Origin: Escherichia phage vB_EcoM-S1P5QW | DNA length: 64,000 nt | Direction: 5' to 3' (one strand) | Sequence record: OL956808.1 | Shown here: piece by piece, positions 9,816 to 12,499 of the stretch | Layout of the letters: each line of letters opens with the position of its first letter | How positions within the stretch are numbered: position 1 is the stretch's first letter | Program-made: the position numbers and the translations under genes | Notes under the pieces: generated by a model | What the model was told of the DNA's origin: nothing | The model's input: only the letters and a program-made list of their open reading frames with translations | The model's database searches: none

Positions 9816-9912
9816 ATATGCTTTAAGAATTATTTGTTATTATTAACTCATACCGCACTGATTAATACCCTCTATCATCAAGGGTTCTTGCTTAAGAGCC
9901 TTTGTTAATAAT

Positions 9913-10156: not shown

Positions 10157-10807
10157 ATGTCTCGTCGTGAGACGCTCAGTTCTTTATTAGGGACTGATAT
10201 GCATTTTTATCTTTATAAAATAACAAATAAAATTAATAATAAAATTTATATTGGTGTGCATTCTACCGAAAATTTAGATGATGGATATATGGGTTCTGGT
10301 AAATTATTAAAAAGAGCCCAAGATAAATATGGTATAGAAAATTTTTCTAAAGAAATATTAGAGTATTTTGATGATAAAGAATCTATGCTTGAAGCCGAGA
10401 AAAATATTGTCACAGAAGAGTTTTTAAATAGACCAGATGTGTATAATTTAAAACTTGGAGGTGAAGGTGGATGGGATCATATAAATAATTATCCTATGAC
10501 AGATCAGCAACGCGAATTAATTTCATTGGGTGTTAAAAAGGCACATTCTAACGGAAAATTAAAAGGATGGTCTTCAAATGGATTAATGAAAAATGGCTTT
10601 GCTGGTAAAACTCATTCTCAAGAAGCTAAACGTAAAATAGCAAAAGCAAACGAAGCAAAAGTTTCTGCGAATGAAAGAAAAAGAAGAATAGAAATTTCTA
10701 AATTATATGATTTTTCTAAGCGGGGTGAATTATCTAAATATGCTAAGCATATTGGCGTAAGTCATACTCAAGCAAAAAGAATTCTAAATCAAATTAACAA
10801 TATATAA
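10157..10807 (+). mobile_element. segB: GIY-YIG homing endonuclease (SegB-like) inserted in tRNA cluster
   Basis: 216-aa ORF with GIY-YIG motifs (FYLYKI...KIYIGVHS) and repeated NUMOD3-like motifs; lies between tRNA-Gly and tRNA-Ser. Confidence 0.8.
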
Positions 10808-11061: not shown

Positions 11062-11070
11062 ATTAATTTG

Positions 11071-11157
11071 GGGAGTTATCCCGTAGAGGTAGCGGTGTGG
11101 ACTGTAAATCCATTGTCATTGCGACTCGGGTGGTTCGACTCCATCACTCCCCACCAA
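11071..11157 (+). tRNA. tRNA-Tyr (anticodon GUA), type II
   Basis: acceptor GGGGAGT/ACTCCCC, anticodon loop CTGTAAA, long variable arm resembling bacterial tRNA-Tyr. Confidence 0.65.
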
Positions 11158-11160
11158 TTT

Positions 11161-11235
11161 GGATGTGTAGCTCAATGGCAGAGCGATCGCCTGTTAAGCG
11201 ATTGGTTATAGGTTCGAATCCTATCACTTCCGCCA
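11161..11235 (+). tRNA. tRNA-Asn (anticodon GUU)
   Basis: D-arm GCTCAATGGCAGAGC, anticodon stem ATCGC/GCGAT with loop CTGTTAA, T-arm ATAGGTTCGAATCCTAT, CCA; one acceptor mismatch. Confidence 0.65.
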
Positions 11236-11349
11236 AATTTGTGACAACTGTCACATTAATATCTACTTGACGCGATTATCGGGGTTGAACTGATCACTCT
11301 TCTCTTAATTTCGTGTGAAGACATCTTGATTGTTGGAGTAGGTATTAAT

Positions 11350-11425
11350 GTGGCCGTAGTTCAGTTGGTAGAACTCGAGATTGTGATTCTCGTAGTCATG
11401 GGTTCGACTCCCATCGGTCACCCCA
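11350..11425 (+). tRNA. tRNA-His (anticodon GUG)
   Basis: anticodon loop TTGTGAT, discriminator C73 then CCA, T-arm ATGGGTTCGACTCCCAT. Confidence 0.7.
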
Positions 11426-11429
11426 ATTA

Positions 11430-11505
11430 CGGGGCATAGCTCAGAAGGAAGAGCAAGGACCTTCTAAGTCCTGGGTCGTAGGTTCGATCCCTACTGCCTC
11501 GACCA
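11430..11505 (+). tRNA. tRNA-Arg (anticodon UCU)
   Basis: anticodon loop CTTCTAA, T-arm GTAGGTTCGATCCCTAC, CCA encoded. Confidence 0.8.
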
Positions 11506-11820
11506 AACAAGAAGCCGGGTCGCTACCGGTAAGTCGTCGGACTGATGTTCCCTGGGTAAGGACTGGCATTAACAAATCTTTACGATCGGTTAATGCCCCC
11601 TTACATCACAGCAGAAACGGCGCACCGAATTATCGATTCGAGGAAATATCTTTGCCGTAAGCCGAGTAGCGTTTTTGACGGAACGTTCGGATATGGTCGA
11701 GATATGGCCTTTTAAAATATTAAGTAGCGTCAACTGCTTAATAACCGGGTTCGAATCCCGGCGTTTCGTACAAACACTTGCCTTAGCAGGTGGAACCCCG
11801 ACAAGGTTGCCGCAAGGCTT
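11506..11820 (+). ncRNA. candidate small stable RNA region (T4 species 1/2, RNA C/D-like)
   Basis: ~300 nt without convincing ORF, relatively GC-rich, contains tRNA-like T-arm CCGGGTTCGAATCCCGG, ends at a hairpin terminator. Confidence 0.35.
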
Positions 11821-11848
11821 AGCCCCGACCGAAAGGTTGGGGCTTTTT
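11821..11848 (+). terminator. intrinsic terminator hairpin plus T-run
   Basis: GCCCCGACCGAAAGGTTGGGGC followed by TTTTT. Confidence 0.7.
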
Positions 11849-11850
11849 AG

Positions 11851-11894: not shown

Positions 11895-12368
11895 ATGAAA
11901 TCATATGCTCAATTTTTAAATGAAGCGGTGTTAAATGAAGCATCTAGCACCGAAATTCAAGCCGTTGCAAAAGCTGCCATTGCCGCGGGTAAATATTCCT
12001 ATAAAGATGCTTCTGATGAGTCACGATTCCAATTTGCTCGCGATATGAAAGCGGAAGGATTTACAGGGAATGCAGTTAGTATGGCCTGGAAAAGTCTAGT
12101 TGCTACTGGAGCTGCTTTTGCAAAGGCTTCGGGTAAACCTGCTCCTAAAGCAGATCCTAAAGTCACACAAGAGAAAAATATTGTTAAAGGAATTATCTCC
12201 AAATATGAAGCTATCCTTAAAGAGCTTTTAGTAATCAAAACTGAAGGCCAAAAACTGGCTCGTGCTTATAGTTTCAAAGATAACCCACATGCTCACTCTC
12301 TTGAGTATGTTGAAGACATCCAAAAAATTATTAAAGACCGCATTTGGTCTGCTAAACAAATCAAATAA
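11895..12368 (+). CDS. internal-protein-like protein (degenerate capsid targeting sequence)
   Basis: 157 aa, N-terminus MKSYAQFLNEA resembles CTS; Ala/Lys-rich. Confidence 0.55.
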   Translation: MKSYAQFLNEAVLNEASSTEIQAVAKAAIAAGKYSYKDASDESRFQFARDMKAEGFTGNAVSMAWKSLVATGAAFAKASGKPAPKADPKVTQEKNIVKGIISKYEAILKELLVIKTEGQKLARAYSFKDNPHAHSLEYVEDIQKIIKDRIWSAKQIK

Positions 12369-12375
12369 CATTCTT

Positions 12376-12403
12376 AGCCCCGACAGAAAGGTTGGGGCTT
12401 TTT
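12376..12403 (+). terminator. intrinsic terminator hairpin plus T-run
   Basis: AGCCCCGACAGAAAGGTTGGGGCT then TTTTT; near-duplicate of the 11821 hairpin. Confidence 0.7.
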
Positions 12404-12499
12404 GGCATCTAGGCTTTTCCGGGCCTCTCTAGGCATCATTTAGTTTATATCCTTTATAATATATTATCCTATCCTTTGATTTCCCCTCCCTGCCCTAGA

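Follow-up and report, generated by a model that had tools for sequence, protein, structure and literature searches.

The 114-nt spacer between tRNA-Asn and tRNA-His in the tRNA cluster of Escherichia phage vB_EcoM-S1P5QW (sequence record OL956808.1; the 64,000-nt stretch analyzed here is hereafter called the window) contains a 95-nt element that, on the evidence of its conservation and predicted fold, is a real, conserved and structured non-coding RNA of the kind known from T-even tRNA clusters. These clusters have been studied for fifty years, and the element constitutes a third non-tRNA RNA beside rnaC and rnaD, unrelated to them in sequence and supported by covariation. Its absence from the model phage T4 may explain why it has been overlooked; in the literature we found no description of a spacer RNA between tRNA-Asn and tRNA-His. 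Many of the phages that carry the element are candidates for phage therapy.

The window derives from a T4-like phage, its positions 11100-11480 being 99.0-99.5% identical to the top database records, which include Shigella phage SH7, RB18, teqhad and ACG-C40. ARAGORN places the tRNA genes, all on the + strand, in the order Gln, Leu, Gly, Ser, Thr, Met, Tyr, Asn, His and Arg. With tRNA-Asn ending at 11235 and tRNA-His starting at 11350, the gap between them spans 11236-11349, in agreement with the 114 nt given by a first-pass annotation of the sequence. That annotation had also stated that all other tRNAs of the cluster lie 1-10 nt apart, which is accurate for most gaps (Gln-Leu 0, Leu-Gly 5, Ser-Thr 5, Thr-Met 1, Met-Tyr 9, Tyr-Asn 4 and His-Arg 4 nt, hence 0-9 nt) but not for the 660-nt gap between tRNA-Gly and tRNA-Ser, which contains a SegB-like open reading frame (ORF). 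Two further non-tRNA RNAs, homologues of T4 rnaD and rnaC, are present after tRNA-Arg and start about 160 nt downstream of the spacer. The 94-nt 'tRNA-Lys' reported by ARAGORN lies inside the rnaC homologue and is therefore read as a miscall; an odd 'tRNA-Met' in locus L002 and a 'tRNA-Phe' in locus L006 appear, by eye, to be miscalls of the same type. A terminator-like hairpin is found 3' of the rnaC homologue. The T4 cluster is transcribed as one primary transcript, which terminates beyond species I RNA (PMC2330249). The coordinates of these features are collected in Table 1.

Table 1. Features of the Asn-His spacer and of the surrounding tRNA cluster in window coordinates, together with the interior variants of the element.
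Feature	Position	Strand	Remarks
11-bp hairpin (CAAGGGUUCUUGCUUAAGAGCCUUUG)	9879..9904		ends 8 nt 5' of tRNA-Gln, the first tRNA of the cluster
GIY-YIG homing-endonuclease ORF	10157/10199..10807	+	between tRNA-Gly and tRNA-Ser
tRNA-Asn (GTT), upstream boundary	11161..11235	+	ARAGORN; Rfam tRNA 71.6 bits
Linker AAUUU and small hairpin GUGAC-AACU-GUCAC (11241-11254)	11236..11254	+	sequence, folds
P1 5' strand (AUUAAUAUCUACUU)	11255..11268	+	14-bp closing helix; pairs with 11336-11349
P2 long hairpin	11270..11316	+	6 pairs changed on both sides
P3 hairpin	11320..11334	+	4-bp GACA/UGUU, 7-nt loop
P1 3' strand (GAGUAGGUAUUAAU)	11336..11349	+	last base U11349 is tRNA-His position -1
tRNA-His (GTG), downstream boundary	11350..11425	+	ARAGORN; Rfam 65.1 bits
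T4 rnaD homologue	11510..11626		87% identity
T4 rnaC homologue	11633..11770		97% identity
'tRNA-Lys' (ARAGORN)	11678..11771		94 nt
Terminator-like hairpin 3' of the rnaC homologue	11821..11844
Terminator-like hairpin pair (AGCCCCGAC[C/A]GAAAGGTTGGGGCTTTTT)	11821..11850 and 12377..12405		near-identical copies
157-aa ORF	11895..12368		between the two terminator-like hairpins
Variant A interior (GGGGUUGAACUGAUCAC...)			window, Karamvirus, some Jiaodavirus, A7_1, contig L041
Variant B interior (GGCAGAAGUCAUGAAC...)			STP4-a, other Jiaodavirus
Variant C interior, longer			Erwinia phage IT22, one IMG/VR contig

The spacer consists of a short linker with a small hairpin, the AAUUU of the linker directly following the 3' CCA of tRNA-Asn, and of the 95-nt element (11255-11349). 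On the tRNA strand, alignment and RNAalifold resolve the element into a three-way junction made up of a closing helix (P1) and two hairpins (P2 and P3). The underlying alignment and covariance model (R1) comprise 16 distinct sequences from a handful of lineages, and the refined structure contains 34 pairs, with 96.8% of the cells paired in P1, 100% in P3 and 77-81% in P2, which is less well supported than the rest of the fold. Over the 14 bp of P1, half of which are A-U, five pairs change on both sides. The second pair of P3 is seen as A-U, G-C, U-A and C-G and the fourth as AU and CG, and its loop reads UCUUGAU in the window and UCAUGAU in most other lineages. P2 is composed of a basal helix (ACGCGA/UCGUGU), an inner helix ((U)CGGGG/CUCU(UA)), a UU/UU internal loop, a GA/UC segment and a 9-nt apical loop (ACUGAUCAC, 11289-11297).

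Both structural features that the first-pass annotation had pointed out in the spacer are present. The hairpin it noticed is the GTGAC-AACT-GTCAC hairpin of the linker, which turns out to be the least conserved part of the spacer and to occur only in Tequatrovirus-type sequences and in Salmonella phage STP4-a. The stretch that it found reminiscent of a T-arm is GGGGTTGAAC (11281-11290), but here the resemblance is superficial: the string belongs to P2, where it forms the 5' side and loop of the hairpin and pairs with CUCU.

The complete spacer folds on the + strand with -30.7 kcal/mol (z = -2.98), a value equaled by two of 200 shuffles, and less well on the - strand (z = -1.93). For a 23-pair consensus, 96.2% of the cells hold standard pairs, compared with 38-52% when pairing partners are slid by 1-3 columns, and nine pairs (36 cells) change on both sides. 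Such compensatory changes maintain the fold in several genera of T4-like phages and in a lineage of the Vequintavirinae. The observed covariation score was reached by none of 500 shuffles; since the 16 sequences stem from few lineages, shuffle statistics of this kind are inflated by shared ancestry, and the slid controls and the diversity of pair types provide the more reliable evidence for the fold. Many of the pairs are G·U, which become A·C on the opposite strand, so that the constraint acts on RNA of the tRNA strand. Model R1 scores window positions 11255-11349 at 110.2 bits (E = 9e-22), and it is markedly asymmetric between strands: the + strand reaches about 110 bits, the - strand 14-20. 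A search of the + strand of the spacer for promoter-like and terminator-like sites found none.

Two resemblances to known RNAs were considered and set aside. The junction contains a hammerhead-like combination of CUGAUCA and GAAG, but its core differs at essential positions and has no Rfam match. The P3 loop UCAUGAU is similar to the tRNA-His anticodon loop UUGUGAU, which is probably a matter of chance, given that position 33 is C and that the window has UCUUGAU.

The first-pass annotation had proposed a covariance-model search against Rfam and an alignment with the tRNA regions of related phages as checks. Searches of the window and seven related loci against Rfam 15 at permissive thresholds identified no family for the element; the sole overlapping match, to SpF41, scored 21.9 bits (E = 3), below its gathering score of 52, and lies mostly over tRNA-Asn, and the same search with variants B, C and D returned nothing. 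The comparison with related phages revealed a conserved spacer, which by itself matches 355 phage records. About 195 of these are Tequatrovirus-type sequences with at least 95% identity, and more distant copies are found in Enterobacter and Cronobacter Karamvirus (86% identity to the spacer), Klebsiella Jiaodavirus (81%), the Salmonella Gelderlandvirus STP4-a (76%) and Escherichia phage A7_1, a member of the Vequintavirinae with an otherwise unrelated backbone (87% over 76 nt). Overall, hundreds of T4-like genomes belonging to several genera carry the element, as do a few Vequintavirinae, and it invariably has a tRNA gene on either side; its carriers include phages infecting E. coli, Shigella, Klebsiella, Enterobacter, Salmonella and Erwinia. 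Across the window and 14 further loci, model R1 detects a single copy in each phage, at E = 1e-14 to 1e-22, and no paralogous copies, and neither model R1 nor blastn finds the element in the T4 locus. In a pattern scan of metagenomes, 14 of 25 matches were true and the remaining 11 were false positives in MetH-like coding sequence, while pattern scans of IMG/VR yielded only 5-6 loci, every one of a known type. A pattern scan of bacterial genomes (one per species) did not find the element; it returned 13 matches, all with a low model score, which we take, judging by that score only, to be further MetH-like coding false positives.

Homologous copies of the element differ mainly in their interior (Table 1). 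Variants A and B align without gaps, and the variant B helix is continuous where variant A has the UU/UU internal loop, so the two are probably diverged homologues; an identical P1 sequence carries variant A in Roth01 and variant B in 5N. The T-arm-like GGGGTTGAAC is not kept in variants B and C, and variant B has GGCAGAAGTC instead. The apex of P2 is identical at 25-28 of 29 positions across four groups carrying variant A, and is more conserved in sequence than the covarying P1; variants B and C have another sequence at this place, and PEi26 lacks the apex altogether. An unfiltered search with the model also revealed two versions reduced to P1 and located directly before tRNA-His, one in Morganella phage MP1 with a 30-nt interior (24.9 bits) and one in Edwardsiella phage PEi26 with a 3-nt loop (19.1 bits). 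These P1-only versions point to P1 as the common core and to P2 and P3 as an expansion. In A7_1, divergence is greatest at the outer ends of P1.

The arrangement of P1 relative to tRNA-His is precise, the last base of the helix being position -1 of the tRNA in each His-linked copy. In addition, the 3' arm of the linker hairpin, GUCAC (11250-11254), can pair with GUGGC (11350-11354), the five bases with which tRNA-His begins. In the minimum-energy fold of the precursor (spacer plus tRNA), P1 is prolonged into bases 1-5 and 7-8 of tRNA-His, giving a helix of about 21 bp (19-21 bp) that forms at the expense of the acceptor stem, and BLAST independently identified P1 and this extension as a 24-nt inverted repeat. 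The sequence (C/T)TGTCAC directly 5' of P1 is common to the window type, Karamvirus, STP4-a and the Roskildevirus type, and UGUCAC at this place, complementary to the start of tRNA-His, is present in the window type, Karamvirus, STP4-a and the IT22 type; the 5' arm GTGAC occurs only in the window type and STP4-a. The extension is absent where the upstream tRNA abuts P1, and in the window the GUGAC..GUCAC hairpin would be expected to compete with it.

The element does not always accompany tRNA-His. In 11 of 201 Tequatrovirus records, including teqskov, REP2, REP3, UFV-AREG1 and TB004, tRNA-His is deleted with only GTG left, and the intact element then precedes tRNA-Arg. STP4-a has likewise lost tRNA-His, and its element adjoins the deletion. 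The order is Lys-element-Asn in metagenome contig L041 and Gly-element-Gln in A7_1. The element is therefore not strictly tied to tRNA-His, which argues against a purely His-specific role in cis.

The phage tRNA-His gene itself shows an unusual feature at the position where P1 ends. In the window (11349-11425) it has T rather than G at -1, together with C73 and an encoded CCA, and T at -1 was present in all ten phage tRNA-His genes examined, which represent ten groups (L001, L002, L013 and L042-L048). This set includes genes from Aeromonas phage phiAS5, Klebsiella phage KB57, Vibrio phage D479 and mycobacteriophage Catera, which lack P1; T at -1 therefore accompanies P1 in some phages and occurs without it in others, so that a link between the two is not demonstrable. 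In the host gene, E. coli hisR, this position is occupied by G (L049 150-226), and to our knowledge G-1 is encoded in every bacterial C73-type tRNA-His. Histidylation by E. coli HisRS is more than 100-fold lower without G-1 (PMC5499578; also PMC9976931). Phages of alpha-proteobacteria have been described that carry tRNA-His genes without G-1, but with A73 (PMC5389517), and we found no literature on G-1-less tRNA-His genes in phages of enterobacteria. The G-1-less phage tRNA-His raises the question of how, or whether, such tRNAs get histidylated.

We place moderate confidence in an interpretation by which the spacer encodes a structured non-coding RNA module of the polycistronic tRNA transcript that is excised during maturation, with P1 serving as a processing and stability helix and P2 and P3 as an added domain. 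The fold on the tRNA strand, the location between two tRNAs and the abutment of P1 on tRNA-His +1 are observed; excision and accumulation are what we infer from them. The element would be co-transcribed in the single precursor of the tRNA cluster, its 3' end would be generated by RNase P cleavage at tRNA-His +1 and its 5' end by 3' maturation of tRNA-Asn, which would begin in the AAUUU past the CCA. The RNA so released would measure about 95-114 nt and, since both of its ends would be locked in P1, should be stable and resistant to exonucleases, like rnaC and rnaD. The two remaining suggestions of the first-pass annotation, a processing signal or a small RNA, gain support as far as sequence can provide it: the segment is conserved, structured on the tRNA strand and bounded by tRNAs, and its helix ends at -1.

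P1 looks ancestral, a leader helix of the tRNA-His precursor that most likely acts in cis, either as an entry site for an endonuclease or by setting the order of folding and processing; together with the upstream GUCAC, it can invade the 5' acceptor strand by 5-7 bp. A classical RNase III site requires some 20 bp (about two turns), for which P1 alone is short; a helix of 19-21 bp is obtained only if GUCAC pairs with tRNA-His bases 1-5, and this extension competes with the acceptor stem. P2 and P3 would be a later expansion, and their sequence conservation suggests that this domain has a binding partner, either a protein or a second RNA. Counting against an essential function of P2 and P3 is the lack of both in PEi26 and MP1.

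The most probable alternative is that the spacer is a cis-acting processing stem and nothing else, with P1, extended or not, forming an RNase III-type site that splits the precursor and the spacer being degraded without further function. We regard this as possible though rather unlikely. P1 is the sole part common to all versions, including PEi26 with its triloop, it attains about 21 bp with the extension, a comparable 11-bp hairpin lies just 5' of tRNA-Gln, and E. coli RNase III contributes to T4 tRNA maturation (PMC4810235); however, the conservation of the P2 apex and of the P3 loop across genera exceeds what a spacer needs, the element is intact where tRNA-His is gone, and P1 by itself has only 14 bp, half of them A-U. 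A second alternative assigns to the leader helix the task of compensating for the missing G-1, for instance by shifting RNase P so as to leave U-1 with the 5' phosphate that HisRS needs. U-1 takes part in the terminal pair of P1, the phage carries T where the host gene has G, histidylation drops steeply without G-1 (PMC5499578), and the G-1 base mainly positions the 5' phosphate (PMC9976931), all of which this idea would accommodate. It is nevertheless very unlikely indeed, because T at -1 also occurs in tRNA-His genes without a P1-type helix (phiAS5, KB57, D479 and Catera), the element persists without tRNA-His, and no mechanism is known that would allow a leader helix to displace the RNase P cleavage site in this manner. 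A broader version, in which the element is the visible part of a non-canonical maturation of tRNA-His lacking an encoded G-1, with P1 (and perhaps P2 and P3) directing the 5'-end site or enzyme or recruiting a factor that restores identity, is quite unlikely, even when pooled with its weaker form, according to which P2 and P3 would constitute a trans-acting RNA released via the tRNA processing machinery as a decoy or sponge for a host tRNA-targeting defence. Should a tie to tRNA-His maturation or to counter-defence prove true, the element would gain in interest.

Three further explanations do without a functional RNA. The terminal inverted repeats, the presence of one P1 with different interiors in Roth01 (A) and 5N (B), the occurrence in the unrelated backbone of a Vequintavirinae phage and the preferred SegB cut at the 3' end of the adjoining tRNA-Asn (PMC2330249) could all be taken to indicate a DNA-level element, that is, a miniature inverted-repeat mobile element or a scar of recombination or homing that mimics an RNA helix. 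Yet the G·U pairs are valid on the + strand only, in keeping with the strong strand asymmetry of the model score, P3 covaries internally, the element is present in a single copy per genome, no target-site duplication or direct repeat at the flanks and no dispersed copies were found in 15 loci, and the outer ends of P1 are least conserved in A7_1, the opposite of what is seen in the terminal repeats of transposons; this explanation is accordingly very unlikely. The decayed tRNA gene entertained by the first-pass annotation is highly improbable and already close to refuted. Beyond its location in a tRNA array and the loosely T-arm-like GGGGTTGAAC, little speaks for it: ARAGORN makes no call in 11236-11349, no member of the Rfam tRNA clan matches the spacer at E<=10, or its counterpart in seven related loci at E<=1, BLAST shows no similarity to the adjacent tRNAs, the T-arm-like string has no TTC loop motif and gives way to other sequence in variants B and C (GGCAGAAGTC in B), and covariation backs a three-way junction closed by a helix of 14 bp, not a cloverleaf. 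Least probable of all, and likewise close to refuted, is a small protein encoded in the spacer, where some GenBank records annotate a 'hypothetical protein'. One + frame is open across variant A into tRNA-His, and JD18 and MLF4 carry automatic ORF annotations, but such an ORF would have to cross a tRNA gene, has no start codon before 11326 in the window, is interrupted by 3-4 stops in variant B and is shifted by single-base indels between near-identical copies (L039, L027), while in our own reading of the open frame all the differences examined between the window and Karamvirus alter the amino acid. These stops, the single-base indels and the substitution pattern led us to reject the small-ORF reading.

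An RNA module excised from the tRNA transcript would have its nearest counterparts in T4 rnaC (species 1) and rnaD (species 2), structured non-tRNA RNAs of about 120-140 nt that are encoded in the T-even tRNA cluster on the tRNA strand and belong to the same precursor. Like them, the element lies inside the cluster on the tRNA strand and has no promoter or terminator of its own. Unlike them, it folds into a three-way junction closed by a helix that adjoins tRNA-His, T4 does not carry it, and it shows no sequence similarity to either, blastn with a word size of 7 giving only chance matches of 8-25 nt; moreover, rnaC has a tRNA-like 3' domain, miscalled by ARAGORN, which the element lacks. A second parallel is offered by RNase III stems such as the hairpin upstream of T4 tRNA-Gln and the stems of rRNA operons, where, as here, long helices flank or precede a stable RNA in a polycistronic precursor. 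In contrast to those stems, the predicted helix described here encloses a spacer and not a mature RNA, has 14 bp unless it invades the acceptor strand, and is accompanied by two extra conserved hairpins. In architecture alone, the layout of a closing P1 with two hairpins is also that of purine riboswitch-type three-way-junction aptamers. By eye, the loops of the two hairpins show some complementarity in variants A (AUCA/UGAU) and B (UCAUGA/UCAUGA), although this putative pairing amounts to only 4-6 nt and there is none in variant C; the element further differs from the purine riboswitch in having no Rfam match at E<=10, other junction sequences and no downstream expression platform.

Several observations on the surrounding cluster were made in the course of this work. 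The 11-bp hairpin that precedes tRNA-Gln is probably the counterpart of the leader hairpin in T4; it was to this tRNA-Gln leader hairpin that Pragai and Apirion reportedly assigned the RNase III site in 1981. The GIY-YIG ORF between tRNA-Gly and tRNA-Ser is 83% identical to T4 SegB over residues 1-117, its C-terminal half is unrelated to T4 SegB and carries a NUMOD3 motif, and its position in the cluster differs from that of T4 segB; from its sequence, it looks like SegB with an exchanged DNA-binding domain. The tRNAs additional to the T4 set include Tyr, Asn and His (window 11070-11425), and relatives (L001, L002) also have Asp; together, Tyr, Asn, His and Asp make up the queuosine family, the four tRNAs with a GUN anticodon. 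In T2L, RB1 and RB3, SegB cuts preferentially in the 3' part of tRNA-Asn (PMC2330249). Given that the Septu defence is countered by a phage tRNA-Tyr (PMC13096335), the Tyr/Asn/His(/Asp) block may be a counter-defence set, and the recognition of phage tRNA loci as anti-defence loci makes it reasonable to regard the element itself as a candidate for a part in supplying tRNAs or in counter-defence.

Other long inter-tRNA gaps are found in the clusters of Jiaodavirus and Karamvirus (L001 856-1108, 1185-1345, 1675-1770 and 1856-1921; L002 754-996 and 1073-1229). They fold into stems that close the entire gap, are conserved between the two genera as judged by eye, and include an rnaD-like motif (UAAGUCGUCGG) within the Asn-Asp gap. 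These gaps may encode further undescribed cluster RNAs and, as they also fold into closed stems, structured spacer RNAs look to be general in such clusters. Finally, the terminator-like hairpin downstream of the rnaC homologue has a near-identical second copy, spotted by eye, on the far side of the 157-aa ORF, and the pair looks like a duplicated regulatory cassette.
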